A stretch of DNA of 64,000 bases from Leptogorgia sarmentosa. Lineage: Eukaryota. The position numbers were made by a program, and so were the translations under genes. The notes beneath the pieces are model-generated. The model ran no database searches and was not told where the DNA came from. It was given only the letters and a program-made list of their open reading frames with translations. The number at the start of each line of letters is the position of its first letter. Position 1 is the first letter of the stretch. The stretch lies in contig OZ210885.1 of the NCBI GenBank assembly GCA_964658305.1, positions 558,001-622,000 of the forward strand. The letters run 5' to 3'. This document shows, piece by piece, positions 1,937-58,304 of the stretch.

Positions 1937-2312
1937 GTCAGCAGGGGTAGTTATCTCCGCTTCATCGTTAACGTATTTAACATTTTCAACTTCTGATAAG
2001 GGTTTTCAATTACTTATAAAGGCTATATTACACAGGCCAATGAAGGTTTTCACACCGGCCACATATTGAAGTTTGTTTTCAAGTTACTGATATCGGCACG
2101 GTTAACCGCGTACTGCTGCATGGTAACATAAGTTTTGTGCTAAAATTAAAATAACTTACAATTTAATAATAATATTATATATTCTGTTCCGAACGGCATT
2201 CATGTATAAATTTTTAATGATATGAACATTCGAAAGATGAATCGAAACAGCTAGTCATAACTCCTGCATTAAAATAAGTCACTTAGGCTGGTACGCTGTA
2301 GATGAGAAAAAA

Positions 2313-4854
2313 ATGGATAAAATGTTTCTACTGATTGGCGTTTTCTTGCTCACGGCAATAACTTACACACTGGTTGCGGGAAACTGCTCAAGATACACAG
2401 CACATATTAAAGATACGAGCTTGCAGGATCGTGTCATTTCAGGCCATGTATTTAAGACAATAACTGGCGTAAATTTTGGAGAATGCTTTCGGCATTGTGG
2501 CCAAACATGTCATTGTCGATCGTTCAACTTGAGGCTTGATAGTAACGGCATTTGCGAGTTGAATGACGTTGATAAAGAAGAAGCACCACGAGCTTTGCGT
2601 GTAAGGAAAGGTTTTATACATGTTTCATTCAAAGCATTGACAGAGGTGAGCCATATTGTGATACGATTATTAATAATATAATATGAATCACTTTAGCTAA
2701 GTGTACTGTGAAGTAAGCTAAGCAAGCATATTGTTTTCCCTCTACATTTTCATCGTGAAAACATTTTGCCTTGATGTCTAATTTGAAGCTGTAGTAAATT
2801 CTTAAATAGAACTGAACATTTGCATTTGAAAAATCGTACGGTTTTCGAAAGGGAAAAATTAAAGAATGTGAAATTGTTTTTGTATGTCAATACGTTAACT
2901 TTTTAAATTTACATGTATTAGGCCACACCATTTTTCTCATGAAATTATAATGACTGCATGTTCAATTCTTTACTTTTCTTCAACTTCAAGTGACATCGAG
3001 TAAATAACAATATGAATATTACGTTTTCTCGTCCACAGCAACCAGATATGGTAGTGTTGATTTTTCGTTCACATTTTTACAGTATAGCTGGCTGAATAAA
3101 ATATAAATGAAACGCCCTGCAGTTGAATTTAGCGGCAATAATTTTTCAGCAATAACCGTCTATAATTTCTTTAGACACTCCTTTCAAATCACCGCTGCCT
3201 CTTGCCTGAAGGTTCTAGACTGGAGTATAATATAAAAATACGAATTGGGAATTCAGTGCACTCTTTCGATGATGACCTATTTCGGACTGGAAGTCTCTTT
3301 CTCGTCAGTCATTAACAAATTGCGAAAACCTTGTTCCAGGCCAAAAAAATAATAGTGAACGCATAATTATCGAAAATGTTTTTTTACTGATCTTTGAATT
3401 TAGTTCAATATATAACATAGATAGAACAACTAGACGTACAGAGGACGAAACAGGAGAACTTTGAATATTTCTTTCCTATGACAAGAAATAATTTTGTTGA
3501 TCAATTTTTCACTTTCACATTCTAGTCAACATGCACAAAGTCGGCTGAAGTATGTTGTGTTGAAAATCCTTGTAAAAATCAAGGAATATGCGTTCCAGAG
3601 ATACGCTTTGGTAAGAAAAGCTTTTCCTGTAAATGTTCGCCAGGATTCACCGGAAAGTTATGCGATGTACAAGTGAGAGGTTGCAAAGACTACCTTCGAG
3701 GGAACGAGTCAGCCACATCCGGAGATTATGAACTTTTCGTGAGCGAACTACAACTGACAAAAACTGTTTACTGTTATTTTGATCTCGTGAATATGGAAGT
3801 GTGGACTCTTGTGATGTCTTACTCATTTTCTTATCAAGGCAATATGGATAATTTGCCATTTCAGAAAGATAACCCAATCAACGAAGACAATCCTGCATTT
3901 AATTACTACCGTGCCTCGCATGCTTTGATGACATATTTGAAAAATGAAAGTACTTTCTGGCGAGCTACATGTAACCATGACACCAAACCACATGATGACG
4001 ATTACATGCAAAGTTATTTCACAACCTTGGACATCATGACCTATAATGGTAAGAAGCTTCTATTTTACACATGCGCAAATATTATATCTCTACTTCAAAT
4101 TCTCCAATGACGATATTTCTATCACGCCTGACGTCATCACTTATCGAGCCTGGGGAAGGTGGACTGGGATGGAGCATAATTCGCGTAAACAGAAAGAAAA
4201 GACGCACGACTAGGGGGAAGGTGTATAATATATCATTTGTAGACTCTCCGTTCTGTATTAACCTCAGGGGTAAAGTATTAACCTCAGGGGTAATATTTCC
4301 AATGGGGAGGCCTCGAGAACTATCATCGCTGAGTATAACTTTCGCCGCCACCCCAAACGCACGCAGGGTTGACTATAAATGATAAATGTGGCAACCGCAT
4401 AAATACTCTCTAAATTCAAGCGATTGAAAATTCAATCTATTTATCCGTAAAAACAATCTTTTTGGGATTGTTTTCTCGGACCGTTTTACGAAGTTGAGAG
4501 CGATTTCAAGATTGTCTTAATATTTTTGATATACGCTTTGTATAGCACTGACGATTTTTTTTATTAAAATTAAATTTGTTATTTTCTACTTTACAAGAAC
4601 ATAGATGTGCTGCTCTGGATGTCGTCAAAGTCGCCAACACGACTCACAGTCCTGCTAACACTTTTGTGGTTCAAGATGGGATGAGAATATTTGATATAAT
4701 CACAACCTATGGAGAAACAATGTGTACATCTCCTTTGAAATTACCATATGAAAACGACGGACTCTTTGGATGGTTCTCGTTACCAGTTCCCCAACATGGC
4801 TGCGCTGCATCACCTGATTCAACAACACAGTACTGGTTTGGAGTAAAATTGTAA
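2313..4854 (+). CDS. Secreted PAN/apple + EGF + fibrinogen-like domain protein (3 exons)
   Basis: join(2313..2645,3526..4048,4598..4854), GT-AG introns with consistent phases (0,1). Signal peptide MDKMFLLIGVFLLTAITYTLVAG; PAN motif CFRHCGQTCHCRSFN..CELN; EGF CVENPCKNQGIC..CKCSPGFTGKLC; fibrinogen-N-like GCKDY..SGDY..VYCYFD..WTLVMSY; ends STTQYWFGVKL*. Confidence 0.85.
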
Positions 4855-10962: not shown

Positions 10963-11937
10963 TCACTAGTAATTAACATATAATTATATTTTAATATAAA
11001 TGAAGTACAATAAACCCAGGTTCAACCAACACATTGAACTTGATTTTGATCGTTACACCTGATTGCGGGCTGATTCGGGCCTAATAATGCGGAACAATAT
11101 TGTTAACAACTAATAACAATGTAGACTGCACAACATCATTGCATCCTGATCTATTGAACCTTGAGCAAGTGTTACAGGTGTTTGTAATATAGATGGGAGG
11201 CGATTGTTATATAGGCTTATAGTTTGTAGCCCAATTTATTAATGAGGAAATTAAACCGAAAAATCTTAGTCCCTTAAATAAAGTATCAGCGTGTGCAAGC
11301 TCCGCTGATAGCGATAGTGCATGGGCAAAGTTTGCAAAAGGTGGACTTGAGAATTGTCAAGTTCCAGCAATAGGTTCGCAGCTAATTAGAATGTACACAC
11401 TATGTACTATATAATTTAATTGTCACTAGTGTGAAATGTACTTCTCGCCTAATCCTGAAATACAACGTCCTGAAATGAGGGACCGACATCCAAATAATTT
11501 ACCTTTCGTAACCATGAATTGATTAGCGTCGCAGTGCAAACGCCTTTACATGAATGCCGGAAAGCAACATTGATATTTTCAATGATTTTACTGCATGCAG
11601 CGGCTGGAAAAGCACCTTCAAGAAAGAAAATAACGTGTATAAAGTGTAGGAACCCACAGGCCTGAAAGGCTGCGTTGAACCTAATATACTGAAACAATAT
11701 TTTAGCCTACGAAAAGCCGTTTTAATTCTTTTTTAACTGAGAATGGGTCAATATATAACAATTAAATACAGTGCGGAGTATAACTTAATTGCTGCTGAAT
11801 ATCGAATATATTTCAATCGTACAATGACACCTGATAAATGTGTCACTTTGAGAATCCCTATATATTTCTTGCACAGGCAGCACAGCGCATATACAAGTAG
11901 AGTCTCGTGAAGCAAACGTTTGTACGACACATCAGGA

Positions 11938-12879
11938 ATGAATGCCACAAGTGAAGAATTCTTCCAGCAGTGCGTTATGTTGAACTCACGGTATGAAATT
12001 TTGGTAAAGATGCCATCGAAAGCACATTTCAACAACATGATCAGTGCCTGTTCAGTTTTTACGTTTTTAATCCTACCCACGATTTTCCTCAATGGCATAT
12101 CTGTTTTCACGATAATGAAATGCCCCCAACTGAAAGAAAAGATTCCTTATTTCCTGATAATGGTTCAATCACTGGCTGATTTAGCGGTAGGATTTGTCGG
12201 TTTACCTTCATTGAGCTACCTTTGTTTCAGTCAAGCGTTGGGTCACGCAGATTGCATCAGGCAGCGGTTGATAGTAAACATTATGATTCTTCCATTTCTA
12301 ATATCTTTAATAACGTTAACAGTAATGAGTATTGAACGATACATCAGCATTGTACATCCCATCAAACATCGTAACATGGTGACAAAAAGAAGAATCAAGC
12401 ATTTCCTGGTTGGCGGATTCTTGTTGATGCTAACAGCAACGATCACCTTATCTTTTCTCCAAAGTCAGATGTTTGAAAGATTTTTAATTATTTGCATGTT
12501 GCTCTTTATACTCCTTGCACTATTTGTGTACACAAAGATTTTTCTCGCTATTAAAAAGCTAAATCCTCCTGGGAATATTGGAGATATTTCCACGTCGAAT
12601 GGCCAAAATCAACGTTCGTTTTTGAAGAAGATTCAACAGGGGAAATCCTGTTTCCTTGCTGTGGGATGCTTCCTTGGTTGTTTTCTTGCAGGGATCTGCT
12701 TACTTGCCACTGTATCCTATGTTGATAAAGTACACTTTGTCGGACTCAGGGCATGGGCAGGAGCAGTTATGAACTTAAACTCAAGTATAAACTCAATAAC
12801 ATTTTTCTGGACCAGACCATTACTGCGTAACGAGACATTTAAAATTCTCAGAAACTTGTGTACTTCAAGAAGACATTAA
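11938..12879 (+). CDS. Intronless class A (rhodopsin-like) GPCR, orphan
   Basis: First ATG gives MNATSEEFF with an N-glycosylation sequon. Seven hydrophobic segments, TM1 N, TM2 LADL, TM3 SIERY, TM7 NSSINSITFFW. Confidence 0.9.
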   Translation: MNATSEEFFQQCVMLNSRYEILVKMPSKAHFNNMISACSVFTFLILPTIFLNGISVFTIMKCPQLKEKIPYFLIMVQSLADLAVGFVGLPSLSYLCFSQALGHADCIRQRLIVNIMILPFLISLITLTVMSIERYISIVHPIKHRNMVTKRRIKHFLVGGFLLMLTATITLSFLQSQMFERFLIICMLLFILLALFVYTKIFLAIKKLNPPGNIGDISTSNGQNQRSFLKKIQQGKSCFLAVGCFLGCFLAGICLLATVSYVDKVHFVGLRAWAGAVMNLNSSINSITFFWTRPLLRNETFKILRNLCTSRRH

Positions 12880-37773: not shown

Positions 37774-40131
37774 TTATCTTTGTTTCCAATTACTCCTGCA
37801 TGGAGTACAACAGAGCAATTTCTTTAGTGTAGGTATCATCACTTTCATTAAAAGTTGAAATCCTTTTTTCCCAATTTTCCCTCTGCCAATATTTTCATGT
37901 CTATCGAGATGACAACCCAACTCCCCTTTAGAATCATTTAAATGTACACCTTTCAGATATTCTAGACCAATAATGTCACCAAAGTCATTCATCATCCCTT
38001 CATATCCATCTTTTGTTCTAAGGTCATAACCAGCAGCAAAAGCATGACAAGTGTCAAGACAAACACCTACACGAGATTTATCACGTACTCTATCAATAAT
38101 TCCTCTCAGTTCTTCAAATTTTCCACCAACCTATGAGTTACATTGACATCCTCAGTACAATCATACATGGGTAATGGAAAAACTATTGTACATATAAAAA
38201 CATTATACAGATAAATCTACTAATTATTGGTCATTTAGTGGCCGGTGGTTAAGGATGACTATATCCCAGAAAGCTCAGCAAAATAACTACTGTATCAATA
38301 TTGAAGTTTTGTTTAAAAGATTTTATCAATATATGTGCTGATTATTATATTTACAAGGAATTAGGTTACACGGTGGTAAGGATGTAGGATATTACGAAAG
38401 TGTAGGAGAATACATGGCAGGACGTATTCACGAAGGGACAAAAAACAGACGAGAAAACAACAATAGAGGGTAGTTAGGGAGGTTAAGTTGAATGCCTTGG
38501 AGGTTAAAAGAGGGTTTGAGCTTACAAATGAGAAGTCTTTCGTAAATCAATATTCAGAGTGGCCTGTAGTGTTTAGTGTTTTTGCATTCTTAACGTCCAG
38601 GGAGGCGTGTGAAAAAAGAATTACAGGAGAGAATTACAGTAATAGTTTACGTAGTTGCAAAAATAGATTAGTGATTTAAAAACAGGATAGATAATACAAA
38701 TTGAATAATAGCAATAGTAAAATATGTATTTATAAATAGTATATGCCTAGTAATAAACGTTACTAATAAAATCTTTACAAATTATTGTTTGATGGCTTCA
38801 TTAAAAGTTTAAAAGTTATATGTTGGGCTCTCATATTCATCATTAAGGAAGTGTAATACATACATAATTAAGAAATATGATGAACATATTGTTTTCTTCA
38901 TTATGACAGTATTCGGGTATTAAATATTATTTAAAGCTCTAAGAGTACTTTGTTTTCTCTTTTTCTCTATTGTACAATGTACGTTCCGTATGAACAAGCT
39001 ACACTAGCGAGTAAACAACTATCATGAACGATATGAATAATGTTTTTCACCAAAGAGATCGTGCACAAAAAGCTATGACATTACTGTTTCTTTTGGGGGG
39101 GGGGGGGGTGTGCAAATTTTTTTACGGTGGGTGCAAACATTTCTAGGGGGTGGTACCAAAAAATCCAGGGGGGAGCACACTCCCACCATCATGTTTTTTT
39201 TGCTCAATCATGCAAACTAACAGCTCCATAAAACCCAGGAGAAAGTAGCTGTGAAAAAAAAGCCAAATACTTGGGTTTTCCAACATTTTGCTATCTTATT
39301 AATCCACCTGGGGTCATAAAAAAGATGCAAATACGTAGGTCAATGTCATATAGGTCAATGTCTCTTACCTCCTTACTGCCTAAATGGTAATTCAACAAAA
39401 AGAATCTTTCTTACCGTGTTTCCCTGGCAACTCATATTTTCTAATACTGTCACGACAAACTTTGTCTGCTGATGTGCCATGTTAATACTTTCTCCTATGA
39501 GGTCTAAGCACTTCTCAACTGATATCTTTCCACAGGTGGACCCAGGGTGGAAGTTATACAATGTTAACCCCAGCATTTCACATCTCTTTAATTCATCAAC
39601 CAAAACTTGACGACTTTTGGTCAAAGTTTCAGGGTCAGGTGATCCACAGTTCATCAGGTAAATACCATGTGGTAAAATTTTGTTAGGAGAAAATCCAGAA
39701 TCTTTGCAAGTAGTTTTAAAAAGCTCCGCATTTTTTGGGTCTAAAGGCTTTGCAGCCCACTGTCGCTGTGAACGTAGAAACATAGCAAATGACTTAGCTC
39801 CGATGTCCAATGCACGTCGAGCAGCCAAATGCAACCCACCGCTTATGGAAACATGTGCACCAACATATTTCCCTTCTTTGGTAATTTTGTCTTCTGGTAG
39901 TTCGTGCTTCATTTCCAAAAACCCTTCATCTTTTTCTTCTTTTATTTCAATCGTATTTCCTAGTTGTTGTTTTTCATCGTGTGCAATCTCATCGGATGTC
40001 TCAACTTTCATTTTCTTGTCAAGATTTGAACGTTTTCTCTTTGAAGGCATGCTTGATTTATTAGGTGATATTTCATTTTCACACGCAGTTTCGCCAGCCC
40101 TCTTCGCAATTCTCGTGCTTCGTCGAGACAT
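37774..40131 (-). CDS. APN1: Endonuclease IV family AP endonuclease (APN1/Nfo) with apparent C-terminal deletion and frameshift
   Basis: complement(join(37774..38130,39415..40131)). Motifs VGAHVSISGG, LPHGIYLMN, YNFHPGS, VLENM, GVCLDTCHAFAAGYD, VHLNDSK, DRHENIG; basic N-terminal extension. The ETP motif is missing (see findings). Confidence 0.85.
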
Positions 40132-41327
40132 GAGGAACTAGTGATGTACTTCAAAGGATCAGAAGAAGTAAGAAGGTCGAAAACCTTTGAAAATTTTGCA
40201 AAATTTACGAGTCAATTCTCAAAAACAAGGTCGACTATATTTTAAAAACACCATGTGCATCGAGCCTGCGATATTCATTGCCGTAATTTCTCGAATACTT
40301 CATGAGATCAATACAAAATTGACCATAATAAACATTTGTCTAATTTTAAGATATTAAAATGTGACGTTTTCATGTACCCAGTTTTTCTAATGCGACCTGG
40401 CAAAAAATGATCAACTACGCATGCTCAGCAAGTTAGTCGTCATCCAATCAGATGCACGCATCAAGTAATTTGCCGAGCATGGGCACAAATAGTGGGTACA
40501 GTTATACCTCTGCATGGAATTACTCTGAGGTTTTGTCTTTTTGAGTTTTTCACAACAATGTATTTTACTGTACATCGTCCGTCCATTCGTCCAAAACTAT
40601 TCATTTTCTTAAATATACCCACCTGGATAGATTTCTGACAATATTTAATTAACTTGTTTACTAAACCTCTGTCGATTCAAATCTCGATTTCAAACTTTGT
40701 TAAAAAAGTTGTGAAAACTTTTTTTGAAAAAAATTTTGTTAATTAACTAATGACAAAAAAACAATCTCACTCCCCGGAACATGGCGCCTTGCCACAGGGG
40801 ACTGGGACGTCCATTATTTCTATGGATCATACCCCCACCCCCACCCCAGAATGCGTCAATTCACTAGATCTGCTTCAAAATAATATCACATAATTATATA
40901 GTATATTGAACCATTGTTGGCATATTAGTTTTCAACACAAAATACAATGATTTATTACAGTTTAATTAGTCAGTAAAATGAGATAAAAATCATTAAAGGA
41001 CAAAATCATGGACGGCAGCAACTGAGAGACGATGATGTATACTGAGCTACTATTCATTCGAGGCAAAATTATAAATAAGACCTAATTTTATATAGCTACA
41101 GAACTCCGAATACCAAATTTCAATTGATATATCAAACCAACCAGTATACGTACATCGATCCTAACCATTATATCATTTTAATGTCTGCATATGAAAAATC
41201 AGCAAACTGATAATCTGTTCCTTCCTGTGTTTTTGAAGTTATAAAAATAGGACGTCAAGTTTTAAAAAAATGCATGAATCAGCTAAATTACAAAATACAA
41301 AAAAGTGGTGATTGCTTTTCTTCACAT

Positions 41328-42269: not shown

Positions 42270-45200
42270 GATGGAACAACTAGAAAATAAACACAAACGC
42301 TAACTTAACCTTTGTTCTGATTTTGCTGGACCAATTTTAGCGTACCACTATAATTAGCATTTCTAACGAAATCCACCCTAGAAATCAACCACTATTCTGA
42401 GCATTCTTGAATACATTAATCTATATCATTATAATGATTATATTGCTGGGTTTGACCACAGTAAATATTCATTCACCTTGGAAACAGCATATAGCACGAC
42501 AAATTATAATAACTCGATGTTTCTAGAACTTCGACCAAAGTCTGTATTAAATCAAGATAATCAGAGTTGTGGGAAATGTTTGATTCATTTTACCAATGCT
42601 CGATGTCAGTAAAGAAGCATGCTGTTCATAGTTTACATCAAGACGCAACAAAAGTTTTACTCATCTATCATCTAAACGATACAGTATAAGATTTGATTTT
42701 GAACAAATATTGAATGTTCAGATCTCGAATGCATATTCGAATCATCAGATCTTATGCATTGTATCGCTATAGGTAGTGGGCAAAACTTTGGCTGCTTGCA
42801 TGTTGATTTTGTTATCATGTACCTACTCCAAACAAAGTCTGATTGAAGTTTGTTCGTTTTCATGCTTGCACTTTATTTGCAATGCGAAAAAAAGCGATGG
42901 TCAAATAATTTCCTATATTGTATGGATACCAAGGAGTACTGGTATACATCAAAGTTTTTAGCCTACTCATCGAGAACATGCAATTTTCCACTCCAGTCGG
43001 GTTGGGTGGCATTTCTGAAAAATAGTTTAAATTCCTAAAGATGGTACATCCCAACTATTTATATCGAAATATTGTATTATTTTAGTAGCCAGAAACAACG
43101 ACTTTGCTGGCGAGAAACGACAACTTGAAACGACAATTCGAGAAACGATAACTTAAAAATTCCACGTACCATAACCATGGGATTATACACAGGGAAGGAA
43201 ATCAAAATATAAATAGTGCCATATTTGTTCTAGAATCCTCGGATATATAATATTATATATAATATTGTCAGTTATATTGCATTCACATATGTTTTTTGAT
43301 AAAAATTTAGTTAACATTGCTAGCTAAAATGGGGCAAAAGTACCTCACATATATAAGTAGCTACGAAATGGTGATTGTACGAATAGTAAATACTGTTATG
43401 ATATATGCATACAAGTATACTTTAATTACTACAATGTATACATAAGAGAAGATATTGGCTTTACTGTTCCAATATTATATCAAAGTATACTTGACAATAA
43501 GCAACTTTATCAAAACAAACGATTTATTGATGCCCTTGGTGTTGATTTAAGAAGCGCACAAACACGTAATTTTTGCCGTGTACGCGGAGCCATTTGATAA
43601 GCAATCAAAAAAACTTGTTTGAAAGCACGTACGTTTTAGAAGGTTTTCATTCTTTACCAAACCCAAAAGGGATGCTATTGTTGAACTTCTCACACAAAAT
43701 AATCTGGTGAAAGGTGTTTAGTTCAGCTGCTTGAATCGACAAAAACTTCTTCTACTTTAAAGTATTATTTACATGGCGTGCCTTCGCGTTGTCATTAGAT
43801 TAACATGATGGAAGCAAATATTTACTAAATCAATTCACAAAGGCGGTTGTAGCCAAATGTTTCAAAATAAACGATTAAGAAACCACTTACTTGTAAAAGA
43901 AGAACTGGACGTGTAGTGCCAATATATCGTCGAAGTCTGTCTCTGTCGGTAGATATATTTTACTGCATCAAGAATTTTCTATCCACTAAATTTTTGCAAC
44001 TCATTACACGGCTGATTGGTATACTTTATTGTGCGTATAAAAGACTAACCAGTGGGAGGTTAAACTTTAATTGCCTGCAAGATTTTGGCTTTTGTCAGTC
44101 ACATATTGCCGATGGCAAGTTCAAATCTGGACGCAAACAGAAGGTTCATATGTGATAAAAAGTACGAAAAAATAAGCCCTATATAGTTGGAATTTGTTGG
44201 CTCGCCCAGATATAGCCTAGACCTTATTGTTTGATAGTAAATGGTCATTGCAATTGCTTTTCAAGTGTTTTGGCATATTAAAATAATCGTCTTGACTCTT
44301 GAGTGCAACTTTAAATATGATAGCGCTGTAAAAACAGATATAAAATAATTCAAAGTCATTTTAATTTCAGTGAACAGTTTACGAGGCTAGTTTTCGAGCC
44401 TAGCTCTTTACTTTGCAGTTTTTCATATGTCTGTAAGTACGAAGGTTTTAAACCTTAAATAATAAACAACATGGAGTACAATGTTTCAAATCATTGTCTA
44501 GAAGTGGGGAGGGGGGGGGGGGAGGGGTGAGGTACTGCAGTTATGGGGGGTTGTCCGAGCAATTCGGCTATATTTCGTATATATATTCCGAGCGAAAGGT
44601 GTAAATCGCAGTTGTTGTTTCAGGGGCCTGCAGCACAGGTACATAATTATGGTGACCAAAAAATATAACAAATTATTAGTAATTGGTATTATTCTTCAAA
44701 GATTATTAATTTTATTTTCAATTCCCGTTTAAACTTTACCTATTCATATCTTCACTATTCTGACTTATTTACAATCAGAAGATCTATAAAATATTTCGAT
44801 GCTAGAGCACGGGCGTGATGAAATCTCAGTAACTTTCGTATGGGCGACATGCCTCGTCATAAACTTAGAGAGAAATTAAAAGGGATGCTTTTCAACAGCC
44901 GAGAGAAATTTAGCATGGGTAAATATGTTACAAAGATATCAAAAAGCGCAGTGCTCTGCATGTCATATAATTTTTCATTTTTAAACCATTCTGAAATTTA
45001 CATTCCACTATCAACGATATTTGAAAAGGGATAATTTAGGAAGCATTCGGTTATTTCACAAAGGGAGTTGAGTTACGATGACAATAATCAAATTGGAGCG
45101 CGGACGTTAGGGAATGCGAGTGTTTCATCAGGGTTTTCAAACACCAGAACAATATAACTCACGAGGCTGCATGCTCTCTGAATTCAAACGATTGAAAATT

Positions 45201-45742
45201 CAATCTCGTTGGGATTGTTCTTACGGACCAAACATTTTGTATTGAAAATCAATCCTACGCGCGATTGAGAGAAAAATCAATCTAAAGAGTGACTTTTCAA
45301 TCAATTTTCAATCGATTTTTCGTCTCCATCGTTTCATGCACAATTTTTCTAAATTTTCAGTTCATTACATGGATTTCAAAGAACGCCAACGACTAAACGA
45401 ATCGAGAGCTTTGTACCTTTCCCGGTTTTAAAGTTCAGACTTCAAGGTCGGTTGTTCGTAGCTCATGCGATGCATGAGTCCAGAATATCATCAAGCAAGT
45501 CTAACACAATGGAATATTCTTTGATTCAAAATCAAATTTTCCGAACTGAAAAGAACTTTTATATCATGCATGTATGCAACTACATATTCATGTAGCGTTT
45601 AAAGATCAAATAAACAGGGGCGTAATTTTAAATTTGGCATAATCTAATGTTCATTGTCAACGGGCTACGAACAACCGTTCTCAGTTCAGAAACATTATTT
45701 AGCAGGTATTATCCTGAACCAATCAAACTAGGTACTTGCAGT

Positions 45743-48700
45743 CTAAAGACATGACAATCTCTCAACATGTTCATGAACGGCGAGAGAAACATCAAACCTG
45801 CGTCCCTGAGATTCGCGTTTTGAGAGTTCAGTCAACTTCCTGAAAGCTTCGACAGTCTTGGGATCACGATTACCATGGATCTTCTCACAAACTTTGAAGA
45901 CTTCAAAAGCATATTCCGTTGCTATGGAGAACTTTTGGTCAGCGATGTAGACCATCTTGAGGTTATGTAAGCTTGTGATGACTTCAGGATGCCACGACGT
46001 GGCCGAGTGCCGATGCCGAATACGAAGGGCCTGGATATGACAATATTCAGCCGCTGCAAGGTCACCTAAAAAGATCATAATGTTATGGGTAAGATAATTG
46101 AGAACAGCAATGTGCTTCTTAAGGGCTTTGTATGCAGGGTCTTTTTAAGAAGGCACTTACAAACATGGACCGCGTCGTTAATTTGTTGGGTGAGAGTGCA
46201 TGGATGAGAGTTGCCAGCCATGCACCCAACGTTGCATGACTGCAGTTGTTTTTGATGCTTTGCTAGGTAGAGCCTCAAATGACACCATAGCAATGCCCGA
46301 CTTTTACCCTCATTATTAGTTGACTGAGGTTTACGAACTACAATTACAACATCCGAGCACACAAGTCAATCGATTTTGGCAAAGTACTCGATCCATGCAG
46401 AAATTAATTAATGTAGAAGAATTTAGATATTTCTGCAGATTTCTTGGACAGAAATTGCACAGAAAATGGTACGACATACAAATACAGTACGTATCCAAAG
46501 TATTCAACGACCTAGTTTTTGCAATCGCAGATGGACGAAAGGATTTTTATCAAAGTAAATGAACATACCCTCGTCATAATAAACTTCTCCAAGTTTGTTT
46601 TGTGAGCATGCCACTGCCAAATGGTCTTCGCCATGGACCTTCTTTCGTATATCCAAAGCTCTTGTATGATACTTGCGCGAGGCAGATAGATCTCCAAGCT
46701 TGTGGTAAATTACTCCGATATTATTCAAACTGTCAGCGACATCCGGATGATTGTCGCCATAGAGACGCTGGCGAATCTTCAAAGCGCGCTTGTGGATAGG
46801 TATTGCGCCACACAGGTCACCCTGCTCGTGGGAAATCTCAGCGATATTATTGAAGCTGTTTGCCACATGTGGAAAATCCCAGCCATAATTTCGACCTTTG
46901 ATTTCGAGAGCTTTCCAGTAATATGTTTTCGCTGTAGCCAGGTCGCCACGCTCATGGTAAACAGCCCCGATGTTGTTCAGGCTGGTTGCTGTCGTGATAT
47001 GCTCGTTGCCATGGAGCTGCTCACGCATTGCTAACGCACGGTAGTGCAATTCACTTGCTCGATCAAGATCACCTGCGATGCAAAAAGGAAAAGGATTCAT
47101 TTCTGAAAACGAGATCCGTATACTAGGCTATATTGAGACGCAGGAGATGTTAGTTTGGTACGCTATGTAGTTCTTCATTCTCGATATATGAGCAACTGAA
47201 ATATAAATAGAGTAGATAACTTTGACCCAAACCACTATTCTGACTCTGGCTTATTTCGGTTGCGCATATATCGAGAAAGGGCCGATATTTCAGTATTTCA
47301 ATTAGATAGATCGTGTTCACTTTATGACCAAAACTGCATGCGATGACGCACGAAGAACGTTTTGACAGATGAGATTTATTGAAAACATGAAAAAGCGAAA
47401 GCGATATAGGGTCTAGTAGCTTTTAGGGTCTAGTAGCTAGTACTTTTCGAGGGGTCAGTGGAACTTACTCCATTGATTGCGCTCTTGGGAATAGAATTTC
47501 ATTTAATATCACATTATTACACGATTGAACGATCAAAACATGGGGTACCATACAATCAAATTAAGAATAAGTTTTATACCTTGCGAAAGACACACCAGAC
47601 CCAAACTACTCAAACAACTTGCAATGTCCTCACTGACGCTACCAACTGCGATCGCCTTGGAAATCTTCAACGACTTGCTCAGATATTTGCATGCGTCTTC
47701 CATGCTTCCAGTCAAACGCAACACATTTCCTAAACTGTTCAATAACTGCGCGTATTCAGGATGAGTAATCTCATTGGCTCGTTCGAAAATGGAAATGGCT
47801 TTCGAGAAACAGCGCACTGCCGAGCTATAGTCCACCAAAAGGCAGAGGAATGCTTTTCCCAATTCATAATGTAGACTTCTTTGCTCTTCATACTCACGAA
47901 AGCTGAGATCGAGCAAATCCACGTATTGCATGATCTGGGGAGACATGACTTTGAATACTTTGGTGACGGACGTGTCATCCGCGTTCAACACGCAAAATTG
48001 GCAAAGTCTTCTTAAACGACGAATCATTCCTTCTGTTCTGATGGAAGGTGCAAATACATCGCACAGTAATTTATAAATGACTCCACTAATTGTAATGTCA
48101 TCGTTGGCGTAGACACGTGTTAATGGCGAATCCCGAACAGAGAATTCCACTTCTCTCTCTGTAATGTTCAACTCATTTGCAACAAACCGAGTAACAACAC
48201 TCAGCGGAAGATGAGATCTTCCCGCTAGTAACAGCAGATGGAAGCATTCCTCGATAACATTGCTACGTTTTATCACCGTCTCAATAACAGACTCTAGCTT
48301 AGAGCGTGTTGTTTCATTCATAGCAGCAATGTGATAAGGCCACTCTTCTTCTTTGTACCGACTTTTAATATTCTCCAACATTTCGGTCCATGTGTCAGCC
48401 ACGGACTTCTTCTTTTTTCCCGAAAGTTGCTTCACTCGTTTTGCCGCGGATACAAGAAGAGCTGGTTGAAAGTCTAATTTTTCAGACAGGAATCGAGCTA
48501 CATCTTGCGGTATGTTTCCTACAAGTAGCGATAGCAGCTGTGATGATTCAGTTGCGGTGAGCTTGTCCAATACAACTGGCACGGAGCACGGATTATTGTT
48601 CACCAAACTGCAGTCTTGCGTTGTGACGATAATTTGTCCCACACCTTGGTAAATACAGAATTAGATAAATATTAACTGACACTGAAATAGGTTGAACAAA

Positions 48701-50615
48701 TGCATCTAATGGAAGATAAAAATTTTACAGTATTATCTCCTTGGAAAGTCGGAAAATGAATTACCATTAATGCAATGAAATAATAGTCTATTCTGGTTGT
48801 TTTGTAATAGTTGCACACATGGCCGGGCATCGGAAAATTTTGATTTGATCATGTATGTTGGGCTAATTATTCATTGAAGCAGCATATCACTTGATATTGA
48901 ATGGAAAGAATCAACGGCGTGAATCCTGGGACCAGCCCAGTTCTTGGCTTGGAAGGGAACACTATATAAGTGTCTCCCTCCGCCCAGAGTAGTTCTACTT
49001 TCTGTGATATAGGTTCTACGGCCTTTTTTTTATCTAGTTTTTTTTATGGAACATTACAAATGTGAGGTCTTGTGAGACAGCTTTTACGGATTTTGAGCGA
49101 AAATATAAGCCATGATGTTCCATTAACAAAAGTCGTGTACTAAATTTGGAGAACGTAAATTAAGGTTGTTTGTGACTTCGAATTTCCGTCGCGTCGAATT
49201 TAGTCAATAATGAGATTAGAGATGACTTAACTCATTTATCTATTGTTTGTTTTCCATTATTTGGCGCCCAGTGAAAAATATCAACAAAAAACTATTATTT
49301 TACATTCTTTCGAGGCTGGGGAGATTTGTTATGCCTCTCCAGCTGATAAATTATATGAAAATGATCGATGGCGCGAAAGAACAACGAATAATAACTTTTC
49401 GGCGGGAAAATAAGCGAAAACATAAAAGGCAAACGAGTTTAAAACAGGTCTTAAAGTTCTGTTATCGTTACCTTCGTCTCCAGGTTGAGGAAGATAACTC
49501 AACAGTTCCTTGGTTTCCTCCAGCACTTGATCACAAATTATCAGCCATGACGCCAACCCTGATATTCTTTCCTTCACGAACAGCGAAAGTATTTCAATTT
49601 GAGACGTAAGAGAAGCTTTATGAAGAGGAGGGAAGTTCGTGTGGTGGTATCCAAGTCTTTGTGCGAATTCGTGAAGCGAGGAAACAAAATTTTGAAAACT
49701 GTCACATCGAATCGTTGCAACAAAGGACTTGTGTTTCGAAAGAGCTTGACCGATCGCCCTGGCGCAGTCTGTCTTCCCTGACAGCGGTTCTCCAATTAGA
49801 ATAACGGATGATATTTTATGGCTGTGCATAATTCTGAGATCAGTTAGAGTCTTCACGGCCTCGTCAACTTGGCGGCGTTGAATGATAGGGTGATTTGGTT
49901 TGTCGGGTAAAATTACAAATGGCGCGAGAGAATCGTCTTTGTGAAATGATAAGTTAGAGTAATCATTGTACTCTTCGTCACTGTCAACAGGATACGTCTT
50001 GTTCTCGAGGTTCAATACTCTGTCTTCAAGATTACAGATCCTTCGATCAAACTCTAGTTGCATTCTCTTTTCAAATTCTAATTTCTCTTGCAATTCGTAA
50101 ACTTCCTCCGTTGAAAATGAATTCAAATTCTGAACTTGTTTCACTGGGGAAGTATCACGACCGAGTCCAAGGAGTGCTTGCAGTAATTTATTCAAGATCA
50201 CTTGAAAATCGGACGAAGTCACTTCTCCTTTGCTCACATGAGCAAAAGACTGGTTTCTAAATTCCCGTAAACTGTTCACATGATCACGAATTTCAGGTTC
50301 TAAATTCCCACCGATCGACGAAGAGTAGAGCAGCCCGTAAAAAAGCATTGTACAATCCCAAAACTGAGTGTCTCCATTTTGCATGGTATTCAACAATTCC
50401 TTGTTACGTTTTTTGTTGGCAGTCGATTCCATTGAGACAAAGTCGTGGCCATTTCTCGCGGTGTTACACCAGCGTCCATGTTGGCTGGAACAAAGTAAGT
50501 TCCACTGTTGAATGAAGACCTCTCGCAATTCGCACGGTAGCACATTCGTAGCAAGATGACAGACACGGAAGAAATTGAGTTGGTTTTTGCTAAAACAACA
50601 TTTATCTTCTCCCAT
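45743..50615 (-). CDS. DZIP3-like HEPN + coiled coil + STAND/NB-ARC-like NTPase + TPR repeat protein (1011 aa, 4 exons)
   Basis: complement(join(45743..46065,46569..47072,47580..48644,49472..50615)), all introns phase 1. HEPN NFFRVC..WDCTML..LREFRNQSFAH; Walker A GEPLSGKT; Walker B WLIICDQV; IIVTTQD; 42-aa TPRs (A.SLNNIG.VY...GDL..A..YH.RAL.IR). Confidence 0.85.
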
Positions 50616-53600
50616 GTTAAAATCGGAACTTTTGCATCAGTACCTGTAACGTAAAATAAGAATACTTATAATATTTATCCTCACATATAGCACAAAATTG
50701 AACTGTGAAATGCTACCACGCGATAACTCGCCATAAGCACAAAATAGCCAGCTCTACGGAGACTTGGTTTAAGGTGACTTAACCCTTTGTACGTAGTTAC
50801 TTGTCAAAAAATAACTAGTAGCAGAGAGCTGTTGAGTTTGGATGACGAAAATGCAAAGTTTAGTCGTAGTATAGAATTTCAATACTCAGATAGTGAATGA
50901 CTATTTATCAAATTTTAGATATAGCAGCTACAATGGATACAATACTCCAAGAAGGCAGCGTATAGGTAGCATTATTTAATTACAATACATATAAACTTTA
51001 AGATTACATCCTGTACTTGAACAAAATTAGAAGGAAAAATTAGTGAAACCTGATTGGCTAATGAGGAGGCTATTTTTTCTTAATTCAGGCGCATAGGCGT
51101 TGGGGACCAGTAATTCTGGGGGGTGCATGGGGTCTTTTCGCGCAAAAAAATCCACATTGCCCTTTGCATATGGCCTCTCTATAGGCTCGTTTGCACTTGC
51201 AAGTTTTGCTGCGATTTTTAGTGGGATTTTCTCCTTCTGATGGATGCGAAAGAGTGGATCACCAACGAATGTGCCGAGTGTGTGTTTCCCCACCTGAACA
51301 TTCACGACTGGTTTATTCATTCACATAACACATTCACACATTTAATGGCTTCCTCGCAGTATTTGTCGTGTGTGAAATCGACGAATTAGTTTCAGGCAAT
51401 TTGGTAAATATTTAGACAAATTTATTGAATGAACCTGTCGTTTATAAAATTTATTTATTCATTTCCCAACGTTTTTAAGTAACATTAATAAATATATTGA
51501 CTGTTTGTTTGTTATAAAGTGCCGAATCTAAAAACAAAATGAAGCTTCTAGTGAAATGTAAGCTGAAATTTTTGTCATGCGCAGCTCAAGCAATACAATC
51601 ACCAAAGAAAAAGTATTGAAAAACATAGCACACAATGGAAATAACTACATTGTGACAAAATCAGAAGAATCAGTTTTTGCTGCAAAGTATAAAATTAATC
51701 TATTGAAATAATTGAACCCACCATATTGAACATGCTCAGGCTTACATATTAGGAAACTGATGCTCAAAAGTATAACGTGCTACTTTAAAAAGACAAAGTA
51801 TGAAGTATGAAAGACCAGAGAGTTAGAGAAAATACGAAGTTGATTTTGGAGTTGCCTATAATTATTTTATATTTTAAAATTTTTTAAACAATATTTTTTT
51901 TAAACAACAATTTCTCATTGGACACAGAAAGATAATTCTCCACTGAAAAATTGCTAGATATTCCAAAATTGGTCGATAAACTACTAGGTGATTGGTTTTT
52001 AGATTTCTTTACTTGGTTTCAAGATACATGCAACCAAAGGGACATACTCTAGAATTAGCGAGTCACACTGGCTTTCATGTTTTGTGTAATTTTTTAATTG
52101 ATCAGGAGGCTCGTCTACGTAACATCAGTTCCTTCCGTTCAAATACTTTTAGGGTAATTTTTGGCCCACACAGTAAATCATTCAAGCCTTTTGTAACTTC
52201 TTGTCAGAATTTAGATCTCAACGACTACAAATATAGTCACTGTTAGAGTTAGAGGCGAAAACAAAGAATATTTTGGCGTCCTACTATTCCGCTATAAGCC
52301 TTACTGAACTGGAGCTGAAATAATAATAAAATATAAAACACTGTTTGTGCCTTCATTAGGGGAGACAGTAATGTGTCGTGTAGCTACTTGAACTTATTTA
52401 AGGTGTAGCCTAATTATTATGATCTAAAGGCAACGATATATTATATGTTTTAGGGGGTTCAAATTGGCTTTCTTTATATATTACGAACTAGATTTATCAA
52501 CTTATCCTATTCTTAAGGACTGGATCGACACACAAGCAACGAACGATGTTTTGGTCGTTGTACGTCCTCTTGAAATAATTCATGGCGGAAACGAAACCCC
52601 AATACTCGATTGTTGCCAAAAACTACAGTACGCATAATTATATTTTTCATACAATGTTGAAATTGATAGGTAGCTATATATTTTGTAGCTAACAATGAAC
52701 TCCGAGATTCACATATTTTTAGTTCAAAAGATCGAGCACTTTAACTTGAGAGTGAGAAGGTAACAAAATCAAAACTACGATGGCGGGCGATATTTTCTTG
52801 TTTATAACTCTCGATCGTTAATGGCGATAGATTCAGTTGTCAAGTCAAATTGTTATGTCATCAAAAATTTGTGTCTAGACTTTACTGGCATATTGCCGGT
52901 AGCCTAAAATAATGTAATTTATATCATGATTACAAACTCTACAAATTATATAGCCAAGGATTCCATGTATATAATATGTAATATGATTGTAAAATTTCAA
53001 ACATTGAAACTGTCAAAGGTAGTGTATATTGTCGTCGATAGTATATACACGCTAATCCGAAATGAATAGGCCTTTGTACCTATCACATTATTACATGATA
53101 ATGTCGCGTGCTTAATATCGTGCTGTAATACATTCATTATATTCCCTAAAATATATGAATATTACGCAGAGAAAATCAAACGTGTCTTAATTTTGTTTCG
53201 TTGATAAAATACTAGCAACTGCATGTAATGATTTTAAATAAAAAAGTTTGATAAATGTCAGAGTAGAATCAAATACCATTCCATGCTGGAAGCCAAACAT
53301 GTTGGATTAGAGTTTCCTATAGCATTCACAAACATTCCTTGGCCTTTCACCGACCTAAATTACTGCTACACTATTTGATATTCCACTTAAGATATTTCAA
53401 AATATTTTAATGGCTTAATGGCAGTCGAAAATAGATGAAATATATATAGGCAGTCTATGAAAGCATCCTAGAAATAATTAGGTTATTCGCAAGTACAAGC
53501 AATGCAGACACGCTTTATTACCAATACAATGAAATTGCTTACCATAACAATGTGGAAAGTCGCCTTTATGTGAAGCCAGTTACTCTCAATGTTTATATGT

Positions 53601-55422
53601 TCGGCTGTTTTCGATATTTTACATTATATTTTCATCACAGCAAAAGCAAGAAGCAGTGACTGTTATATCAAAATATGCCAGACGATTTGAGCAATTATGC
53701 CAAGGTTATAATATTTCATACTGTTTTGACCGGATATTTGGTATGTGGTATGTACAATAATCTGGAATGATTGTCTTGGATTCGGTGATGGTCATTGGTG
53801 GTTGTTGACCCGACCCGCATTATCAGCCAGGAAGGATGGGGGGTTGTATTGTACTAAAAAATCTCGTATTAGTAAATTTAGTAAACTTTTTGTACCAGAT
53901 GTCTTAAGCCTCAATGCACTTATATTATAATTTTGACAAAAATGAATCGTATATACCTAAACCGTGCAAAGCGTTCATGATCCATCGCGAGTGATCGTCA
54001 GTGAAATCGTTACGTTAGTATATACATATGTAATTTATGATCTAAAGCTTCGTTTACACCAACAAGTTTTATTTGGCAAGTTCCACTTTGCAATTGTTAT
54101 TTGCTGGTGTAAATTAGAAAAAAATTTTCAATGACAAGTGTACTTGTTGAAAATCTAGCATGCCAGCTTTTGAACAAGTACACTGGCCAAAGAAACGTGT
54201 AATCGAGGCTGAAGTATAATTCGTATATATAATGGGTTGGAAACTTGGAATGCCAAATTTACTGCCGAATTTACTGAATAACACCAACGCTGCATAGAAT
54301 TAAAAATACATCATCCAGATATAGAAGAAAGGCTGTAGCCTATATGGCTATATCCAGCCAATTTTTCACGCATGTGTTGGAAAAACTGGCGGCAAACAAA
54401 TAAATAACGGCTTACCATGACAGTCTTGACAGATACCAAAACAACATTGATATAGTCGATGAAGCCAGGATAATTACAGCGAAGACTTCATACATTCAAT
54501 ATTTATTGATACACATCTAAATCCATATTAGTTTACGTACACACTAGTACTCATCTGTGATCGTATAACTATTATAACAATAAATATTTCTAGCTTATTA
54601 ATGAAGGAATCATTTTATTGAGTCATACTATTGGGATCAATAGGAGTGCGATAATGACACTGCGGTCTGCTGTCACTGCATCGGAATGTCGAACCGTTTG
54701 CTAACTTTGCTTCATTGCTTGTTAATCGCAATCCGCGACTGGGCTTTGCATTGATCATGTTATCCGAACCGTATGTCAAGTGTCAAGTTATTTAAAGAAA
54801 TACAAACGTCATTACCTGCAAGAGTTTAGTGACAAACCAGCCGTACCAGAGTTCAGTCTTGGCTTCGTCTCTATCCGGATATCGCACTATAGTCTGGCAT
54901 TTCCCGAATAATTACTTTATCAGTAGTGGTTGGTCAGCACTTCAGGGAATACGGAAACACGTGCCAAGCAATTGAGATATTAGCTAATATTAGCTGCGAG
55001 ATAAGCCTTGGTTTGAAAAAGTTTGAAAAACGTTTTTGTTGATGTTGGCCACAACGGGATATCTGCACGAGGAACGTGAAATGTTAATCATGTATTGATA
55101 TCCACTGTCACTTTGTTGGTTTTACGAATTGGCATTAACTGCATCTTTGTTGGTTTTCTTGGTGTTAGATAGGAAAATGTTTAAAGAAACTGGCATAGGT
55201 TTGAGTTCAACATTCAGTGATGATATTGACGACTACATGATGTAAAAGAAATCCGAAATGTTATTAATATCTGATATCCAGTTCATTGATTTTATTACTT
55301 CGCAATCGCTTTGTCAGCAGTTTTCGTTTCCGTAACGCATTAATTGGTTAGCGTCACAACATGCAGTATAATTACATGGAAACCAACAACACACGTGGCC
55401 AGCGTAGGTAGCACTTCAGGAT

Positions 55423-56529: not shown

Positions 56530-58304
56530 TTAAAAAGCGGTGTTACATCCAGCACTAATAGTGCCAGTATTCCCATACTTCCTTGCTATACCATTTTGGT
56601 AGCCATCGTAAAGATTATGGGCTACAAGAGTGGCTACAACATGGTCTACAAGACGGGCTACAGGAGGGTGTACGGGATGGGGTACAAGAGGGGCTACAAG
56701 AAGGCCTCCATCACCGCCATCAATTTCTGTTGCACCACAGACGTGAGTATATTCTGGGGGAAGATGCGCAATTCCATCACCTTTTGCTACGAACCTTAGA
56801 GTACGACCACAACCAACCACCTTTCTGTAATAACTAGCGAAATCTTTCTTACCAGTCGCTGGAGATCCATACGTAACTACTGCATCCGGGGCACGATTAA
56901 GCTTTCCAGCGGCATACACAGCCGCGATAGTTGCTTCGGCTGCACCAAGACTGTGACCAGTGAGGATGATTTTGTATCCAGTAGAAATCGCTAATCTATA
57001 TTGTCTTTCAAACCAACTGGCAATGTTCATGTAAGCAATTTTGAATCCTGTGTGCAGCCGGAAAATGTTTCCTTTTACAACTGTACGGGAAGATGATGCA
57101 TTCAAATTCTTCAGCCAGTCAATACCTTGATTTGTTCCAGTAAAACCAAAGACAATTATGCGGTGGTTGTCGTTGACGAATTTCAGTACTTCAGTATCCC
57201 TGTTTACATGACTTATTGCTTGCCAGTTACCAATACTACACGCTGGTCTATCATAAGGAGATTCATACTTCGGTATAATCAAAAGCATTTTGATATAGCT
57301 GTACGATTTGAAAGCAACACCAGCACCACGATTGTAATTTGGACGAAGAATGGCATGAGAAGTTTTTTTACAAAGGCATCCATGGTTGCGATAACCTCTG
57401 GGACATTCTGAGCAACCTTTTGAATTTCTAAACCAAAGCCCGCATTTATCATACCAGGGACAGCTACTCTTGTCGGATCCAAAAATGTGAGCGTCACGAA
57501 AGCAGGTCATCAAACCATGACCAATAAGCCGATAACCAGCTGGACAGTTTCCAAAGCACTTGTCGGTAGATTTATGGGGATAATTTCTAGGACAATTACG
57601 ATAGCAGAGTGATGCTTCTTCAGAGGGGTGGCTTGATGGGCAACCCAAACACACGGGACCAACCGGTCTTGCGAACGCCCAGTCACTTTTTCTTTCACAA
57701 GGTTTGTGGCACCAAATCCCTCGAGATTGAGGATACCCGTAGGGACACCTTGGAACGGACTTCCAAGACTTACCAGTGTTTTCCATGATCTTACCATTCT
57801 GGAGGTACCTGGATCCTTGAAAAGGTAGATAACTAGCCTTACAAACAGCAAGGGTGAGTCGGATTACTCTCGTGGTTTGAAGGGCGTTGATTTGTGTGCA
57901 CACAGGTAGAAATGTTATTACTGCTAGTTGAAAAGCGATTCCAAAAATTGCCTATGGAAAATAGAAAAATATAGAACTTACTTATTGGTTAAATGAGTTG
58001 AAATTCATTGTATTGGTAATTATCCATTAAAGTGCACGCGTATATTGCTTAGAACACACATTCAAGATAAGATAAACACAAAACTGACGAAAGCGCATGT
58101 GAGAAATTTCATTTTCTTTTCATTTTCGATATACGTCATCGCACTCTTTGAAGGCCTTTTAACAATTAAATGCACATAATTAATAATTAAAGTGTAAATT
58201 ATATAAATCGTCACAAGTTTTTCGACTGGACCTGACAGTTTCTGATTTTAAAAAAATTATTATAAAAAGTAAATATTGGTAAACCAACTTAGTAAACTTA
58301 CCAT
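56530..58304 (-). CDS. Secreted class-3 (fungal-type) lipase with Cys-rich insert (474 aa)
   Basis: complement(join(56530..57951,58302..58304)); the first coding exon ends ATG|GTAAGT. Signal MAIFGIAFQLAVITFLPVCTQINA; FGFTGT..DWLKNL, LHTGF, ILTGHSLG, TYGSP, KGDGIAHLPP, AHNL. Confidence 0.85.

Follow-up and report, generated by a model that had tools for sequence, protein, structure and literature searches.

A spliced HEPN-NB-ARC-TPR gene of Leptogorgia sarmentosa with a slowly evolving TPR region and no histidine at its MHD-equivalent position

The minus strand of a 64,000-nucleotide stretch of the Leptogorgia sarmentosa genome (contig OZ210885.1 of assembly GCA_964658305.1, positions 558,001 to 622,000; hereafter the window) carries at 45743..50615 a gene in which a putative HEPN ribonuclease (RNase) head is followed by a STAND NTPase core and a series of TPRs. 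This locus raises the question of what such a protein senses, and whether its sensor is exchangeable, as an initial annotation of the same DNA had proposed, or fixed. In the branch to which the gene belongs (clade A) the TPR region evolves more slowly than the NTPase and hardly varies in length, and the histidine usual at the MHD position is missing; on balance we favour a ligand-gated RNase switch of fixed specificity. HEPN-STAND proteins make up some of the largest immune families predicted in corals and bivalves, and a member that is conserved, spliced and equipped with a fixed sensor would be the easiest entry to them, with a single ligand to seek and a single gene instead of dozens.

The gene consists of four coding exons, which join to 3036 nt and encode 1011 amino acids with a single terminal stop. 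Exon 1 (49472..50615, residues 1-381) holds the HEPN domain, a coiled coil, an acidic linker and most of the nucleotide-binding domain (NBD), and exon 2 (47580..48644, residues 382-736, phase 1/1) the sensor-1 strand, the first helical domain (HD1), the winged-helix domain (WHD), a helical linker and the first TPRs. Exon 3 (46569..47072, phase 1/1) comprises 504 nt, exactly the four 42-residue TPR units that had been claimed for it, and exon 4 (45743..46065) the last TPR(s), capping helices and the stop codon. The introns, of 827, 507 and 503 nt, are all of the GT-AG type and all in phase 1; exon 2 is thus symmetric as well, and symmetry is not peculiar to the TPR exon. Contigs of three sequencing runs (X4, X5 and X6) omit precisely 503, 507 and 827 nt and leave the introns uncovered, while those of run X1 cover the introns and display none of these joints. 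The three runs are three samples of one study, and no run with this sequence is on record as RNA. Transcription of the gene is most likely the source of the intron-free contigs; they may alternatively derive from a processed DNA copy, though X1 shows no such joints.

The same three sets of contigs have loose ends at 50644, the first 21 nt of which map uniquely to 53544-53564. They reveal a 5' non-coding exon at 53543..53696 (minus strand), set off by a GT-AG leader intron of 2899 nt; its 3' end at 53543 is exact, while its 5' end is approximate, its extent being that of the longest loose contig end (153 nt). The initial annotation missed this exon. Splicing of the leader creates an upstream open reading frame of nine codons (53545-53543 joined to 50643-50617), most of which lies in the untranslated part of the first coding exon (50616..50643) and which ends 1 nt short of the main ATG; the spliced leader has four upstream ATGs in all. 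Such a frame could damp the translation of a toxic protein, though upstream frames are common. No alternative joints are listed in the X4-X6 contigs. The donor position of exon 1 is identical in four relatives (P0087, P0097, P0098 and P0117), and gene fragments called on other contigs read through at matching donor positions. We rejected the possibility of an artefact or a pseudogene: the frame is open and spliced, and full-length relatives of 1010-1023 residues share 56-84% identity with it. The gene is intact, spliced and real.

By domain order and full-length homology the gene belongs to an anthozoan family of HEPN-NB-ARC-TPR proteins. Porites-type members share 25-28% identity over 89-97% of P0001, an 83%-identical relative of our protein, and homologs from Porites match exon 1 at about 31%; TPRs were found in 23 of the 24 long relatives scanned (24 of 39). 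Within this family the gene and five relatives form a separate branch, clade A, with a support of 100/100 in a tree of 27 rows, which is also recovered in separate trees of the HEPN domain and of the NBD-WHD region. These trees left out 24 (27-row tree) or 36 (domain trees) of the 51 aligned rows, which were near-duplicates and one fragment; they were midpoint-rooted without an outgroup, and the program warns that the join with P0007 may be a long-branch effect. No second copy or paralog lies within the window. In run X2, contigs at 80% likeness sum to a depth of about 102-168 over the exons versus about 125-167 over unique upstream intron DNA; such a depth is no copy number and gives a weak hint on it.

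The head of the protein is likely a DZIP3-like HEPN domain and a predicted RNase (residues 8-165; 50121..50594, minus strand), as suggested by several lines of evidence combined. Residues 112-160 match the Pfam family PF18738 (HEPN_DZIP3) with an E-value of 3.2e-4 and 20.9 bits, compared to a curated cut-off of 27, and 19 of the 27 aligned family members match it at E<=0.01. The ESM Atlas groups the head with HEPN_DZIP3 clusters at 0.95-0.96, with a recognition score slightly below the 2300 mark. The motif RNQSFAH (R120-H126; 50238..50258) lies where the initial annotation had placed it. The pattern R-x4-6-H occurs eight times in the whole protein, i.e., at chance level by itself; this occurrence counts above chance because it is conserved. 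R120, N121, A125 and H126 are found in 49 of 50 homologs, many of them near-duplicates, the fiftieth being gapped there. A search of 1.84 billion representatives (E<=0.001) returned relatives in 354 clusters at 50% identity, of which the best 150 representatives gave 153 domains; after removal of 13 that do not cover the motif, 112 of 140 retain R-x4-6-H (R in 122, N in 128, H in 114). The arginine and the histidine, whose conservation across relatives had been proposed as a check, thus withstand it. Clade A does not vary at R120, N121, H126, R117, D87 and E63, and most of the family retains these residues.

A model of the HEPN domain is all-helical, with a predicted local distance difference test (pLDDT) score of 91.5. 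Among the matches of a VIA structural search with this model are Csm6 (4rgp; Z 6.3, root-mean-square deviation (rmsd) 4.1, 114 residues aligned), AbiF (8vz6; Z 5.6, rmsd 6.1, 153 aligned), 2hsb (Z 5.2, rmsd 3.6, 96 aligned) and the HEPN domain of sacsin (Z 5.0, rmsd 4.0, 96 aligned), all within the noise range of the tool. Of the top 50 rows, about ten are HEPN proteins: 2hsb and sacsin are titled as such, Csm6, AbiF, 1wwp and Swt1 are listed in Table 1 of PMC3710099, and Cas13 and Roquin are HEPN proteins as well. A phmmer search of exon 1 against the PDB gave a best E-value of only 0.46. The head is followed by a predicted coiled coil (residues 169-207; 49995..50111), which had likewise been noticed before: 9 of its 12 a/d positions are hydrophobic, and the P0001 model has a helix over residues 169-204. 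From the rule of the HEPN family, the head would be expected to cleave RNA.

The core is an NB-ARC-type STAND NTPase. Walker A (GEPLSGKT, 49770..49793) keeps its lysine in all 84 representatives covering the position, and Walker B (WLIICD, 49530..49547) its aspartate in 75 of 76; both motifs had been noted in the initial annotation. Walker B has one acidic residue, followed by Gln here and by Asn in 44 of 50 homologs. The proline of HD1 (GxP) is present in 66 of 66 representatives, and clade A retains it together with the Walker A lysine and the Walker B aspartate. In the Atlas, residues 232-585 of P0001 fall with NB-ARC clusters from bacteria and fungi at 0.97, and the secondary structure of the P0001 model supports an NBD-HD1-WHD module. 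The Pfam scan gave no match of this protein to PF00931 (NB-ARC), which the relative P0141 matches at E 6e-9. A Foldseek search with the full P0001 model found a STAND-TPR crystal structure (6mfv) as its best match at E 7e-14, but with TM scores of 0.25/0.37; the predicted TM score (pTM) of the full-length model is 0.41, which makes it uninformative on the arrangement of the domains.

Two features of canonical ADP-latched NB-ARC proteins are absent from this core. The segment IIVTTQ (48616..48633), which we take to be the equivalent of sensor 1, ends in Gln391 where NB-ARC proteins usually have Arg; Gln is found there in 70 of 75 representatives and is a family-wide trait. The second difference sets clade A apart. 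The segment ISGV (48079..48090) presumably corresponds to the MHD motif, a label that comes from its position in the alignment and from the form of the motif, not from a contact map. The protein has Ser568 where the family elsewhere has His: this His is present in 45 of 45 homologs outside clade A in the first search versus none of five clade-A relatives, which have Ser or Asn; among 55 independent representatives 52 have it, and the two with Asn belong to clade A. The MHD histidine binds ADP in plant NLRs and in bacterial AfsR, and its loss leads to autoactivity (10.64898/2026.09.02.748808). Clade A would thus possess a switch without the residue that likely acts as the usual off-latch, which raises the question of what keeps such a STAND protein inactive. 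The earlier description of an intact NTPase holds for the Walker motifs and had overlooked the missing histidine.

The TPR region comprises about eight repeats after the core. Its superhelix is closest in fold to peptide-binding TPRs, with LGN first (Z 29.3, rmsd 3.4, 316 residues aligned) and KLC1 second (Z 25.6, rmsd 3.4, 241 aligned); a ligand, if so, would be a peptide or a protein. Among the five full-length sequences of clade A the mean identity of the TPR region is 74% versus 50% for NBD-WHD, with the TPR value higher in 10 of 10 pairs, and the length of the region is nearly constant (381-383 residues). The HEPN domain is at 66%, compared to the same 50%. Exon 3 is the most conserved part of the protein (82% mean identity versus 48% for the NBD), and its second unit reaches 88-100%. 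Each repeat resembles its positional counterpart in the other sequences (57-100%) more than its neighbours in the same gene (33-50%). In two other groups of the family the relation is reversed: the Porites-type group has 71% in the TPRs versus 90% in NBD-WHD (TPR higher in 0 of 36 pairs) and TPR lengths of 281-491 residues, some sequences perhaps being partial, and seven distant paralogs have 35% versus 47% (0 of 21 pairs). Coding variation within the gene leans the way of clade A: among the variants listed 12 are synonymous and 2 are replacements in the TPR region versus 8 and 10 upstream (p=0.03), two of the replacements falling in one codon. By analogy with ZAR1, this frozen sensor suggests one constant ligand.

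We therefore propose, on balance, a mechanism in which the groove of the slowly evolving TPRs would take up a single conserved protein as ligand; oligomerisation of the NTPase core would follow, as the STAND rule and the logic of Avs proteins and NLRs (PMC12803255) would have it, and the HEPN heads would pair, helped by the coiled coil, and cut RNA. Because the ADP-holding histidine of other NLRs is absent, the off state may rest on contacts of the TPRs or of a partner, as it would in a guard set to monitor a single host protein or a single conserved pathogen fold. The outcome would presumably be defence or cell death. The observed part of this scheme is the gene model and its splicing, the domain order, the R-N-x-H residues, clade A, the slow TPRs of constant length and the lack of the MHD-position histidine. 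In the open-licence PMC and bioRxiv literature we found no test of RNase activity or of a ligand for any animal HEPN-STAND member. A bolder version, which we regard as rather unlikely, makes clade A an old, single-copy anthozoan guard RNase, an animal counterpart of ZAR1 built on Avs logic: lacking an ADP latch, it would be held off by a conserved host protein in the frozen TPR groove, and loss or modification of that protein by pathogen or stress would free a cell-killing HEPN RNase. If true, animals would possess an RNase L-independent route to cell death in which a sensor gates an RNase.

Several observations weigh against the ligand-gated switch. The Pfam score of the head stays under its curated cut-off, and the structural matches of its model are all at Z<=6.6, i.e., in the noise range, with a top match that is not a HEPN protein. 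One group of near-identical paralogs lacks any rate contrast (TPR higher in 28 of 55 pairs) and is uninformative. Positions predicted to line the groove show no significant excess of invariance over other non-structural positions (30 of 48 versus 75 of 144, p=0.24). The RNase activity and the ligand are predictions, and clade-A orthology and single-copy status are presumed. Finally, slow evolution, an isolated, non-immune neighbourhood and a drifting NTPase would also fit a non-immune job.

This last point leads to the rival that survives best, a domesticated protein: a former receptor with a constant function in the cell, such as RNA turnover or a TPR adaptor, whose NTPase is decaying to a scaffold. 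It would account for a TPR region that is the most and an NTPase that is the least conserved part, for the lost MHD histidine and for the absence of paralogs among neighbours that encode an AP endonuclease, a G-protein-coupled receptor (GPCR), a lipase and PAN/EGF proteins; NPHP3 and TEP1 are examples of STANDs outside immunity (PMC12803255). Clade A nevertheless retains the Walker A lysine, the Walker B aspartate and the HD1 proline, conserved singleton NLRs such as ZAR1 serve immunity (10.1101/2020.10.12.333484), and its other relatives form an expanded family that is assigned to immunity (PMC10236652). We consider a domesticated role unlikely.

It is also conceivable that the protein senses no ligand of its own and co-assembles with variable HEPN-NB-ARC-TPR paralogs, as a primed executor or an inhibitor. 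A conserved member that has lost its latch residue beside a large variable family (the 354 clusters mentioned above) may be reminiscent of atypical plant NLR modulators. Such a helper would be expected to conserve the oligomer interface, i.e., the NTPase, which is the least conserved part instead, and every paralog has a HEPN effector of its own; we regard this possibility as doubtful. Improbable, in our view, is a head that binds RNA or dimerises without cutting, the signal taking another route. Inactive HEPN domains are known, e.g., in Swt1 (PMC3710099), we found no published test of a DZIP3-type HEPN RNase in the literature searched, and the motif is missing from 28 of the 140 relative domains, so that cutting appears dispensable in part of the family, a point that also counts against the favoured reading; the six residues invariant in clade A and retained in most of the family speak for a working site. 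The sensor shuffling that the initial annotation derived from the symmetric TPR exon is highly improbable in clade A, because its TPR region is more conserved than the NTPase and fixed in length: exon 3 is symmetric and made of whole repeats, TPR length varies among paralogs and brown-algal NB-ARC-TPRs are reported to shuffle their TPR exons (PMC3341825), so that it may occur in the paralogs, but all five full-length clade-A sequences keep length and positional identity of the repeats and X4-X6 list no alternative joints.

The fixed-specificity switch would be a variant within an architecture that is already known and ordinary for corals. Coral genes with HEPN, NB-ARC and TPRs have been listed as innate-immune receptors by Noel et al. 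(2023, PMC10236652), whose orthogroup OG0000193 contains 164 genes in 11 corals and 19 in Dendronephthya and is labelled 'NLR; receptor, innate immunity'. Among 30 of its 53 rows, 15 have HEPN, NB-ARC and TPR and six have NACHT in the middle (21 in total), a likeness drawn from domain tables. OG0000193 genes are expanded, mostly in tandem, whereas ours stands alone in the window, on a separate branch, with slow TPRs of fixed length and without the MHD histidine. DZIP3-type HEPN domains fused to TPR and NACHT, expanded in Nematostella and oyster, were proposed as defensive RNases by Anantharaman (2013, PMC3710099), and large HEPN-NACHT sets of cnidarians and bivalves are known from Emery (2021, PMC8260672) and the pearl-oyster genome (PMC9646362). 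With DZIP3/hRUL138 and the HEPN-NACHT proteins our gene shares the R-N-x-H motif, the STAND/TPR fusion and the predicted defensive RNase; most of the HEPN-STAND members described carry NACHT, often with leucine-rich repeats (LRRs), unlike the NB-ARC-type core with TPRs found here. The HEPN-STAND-TPR layout given by the initial annotation is borne out, while the novelty that it implied is not, as the architecture is tabulated for corals (PMC10236652) and the HEPN-RNase reading published (PMC3710099, PMC9646362). The conserved branch without a latch appears to be a variant that we did not find described in open-licence PMC and bioRxiv main texts.

Bacterial antiviral Avs proteins share the logic of effector, STAND and TPR: their TPRs read conserved protein folds, and oligomerisation switches the effector on (PMC12803255). 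Ours is an intron-containing animal gene, and the analogy is one of function, not of membership. Membership was rejected, as PADLOC found no AVAST/Avs model at E<=0.01 for exon 1, P0001, P0025 or P0008 and matched only generic TPR and weak ATPase models. The best analogy for clade A is plant ZAR1, an NB-ARC receptor that is atypically well conserved, has undergone little duplication and binds its partners through a conserved surface (10.1101/2020.10.12.333484); ZAR1 differs in its coiled-coil effector, its LRR sensor, its retained MHD histidine and its singleton status, which is demonstrated there and presumed for clade A. Proteins of the nephrocystin-3 and kinesin-light-chain type have the same 42-residue TPRs, and the likeness is confined to the repeats: orthology to nephrocystin-3 was rejected, exon 3 reaching 82 bits for TPR_NPHP3 against a cut-off of 100 and exon 1 having no match to NPHP3_N. 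Automatic annotation as nephrocystin-3-like had been anticipated, and two Porites lobata paralogs are indeed named 'Nephrocystin-3' in UniRef. A canonical animal NLR (NACHT with LRRs) was likewise rejected, since the sensor consists of TPRs and no LRR family matches at E<=1.

Some relatives carry further domains. P0262 (2123 residues) continues after HEPN-NB-ARC-TPR with ankyrin repeats, a kinase and a Ribonuclease 2-5A domain, an RNase L-like unit; this may reflect a genuine fusion or the merging of two gene models. P0208 combines the same HEPN type with a Roc GTPase match. P0118 and P0119 have tandem HEPN copies, and in P0119 both copies lack the motif histidine.

High-copy dispersed repeats, with a summed contig depth in the thousands, lie in intron 2 (47176-47285), in the leader intron (50920-51700) and downstream of the gene (45170-45430). 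The remainder of the window contains, on the minus strand, exons of AP endonuclease 2 (endonuclease IV-type, 37777-40137) and a frame of 473 residues (56533-57951) whose N-terminal part is rich in cysteine and which also encodes a class 3 lipase domain. The plus strand carries a single-exon rhodopsin-type GPCR (11911-12876) and two genes in which EGF or COLFI-like domains come after PAN domains (2241-4851 and 35057-36710). Cysteine-rich exons at 29128-30091 (minus strand), with a short tandem repeat at about 29570-29700, have no clear Pfam match and resemble three-finger/Ly6-type units.

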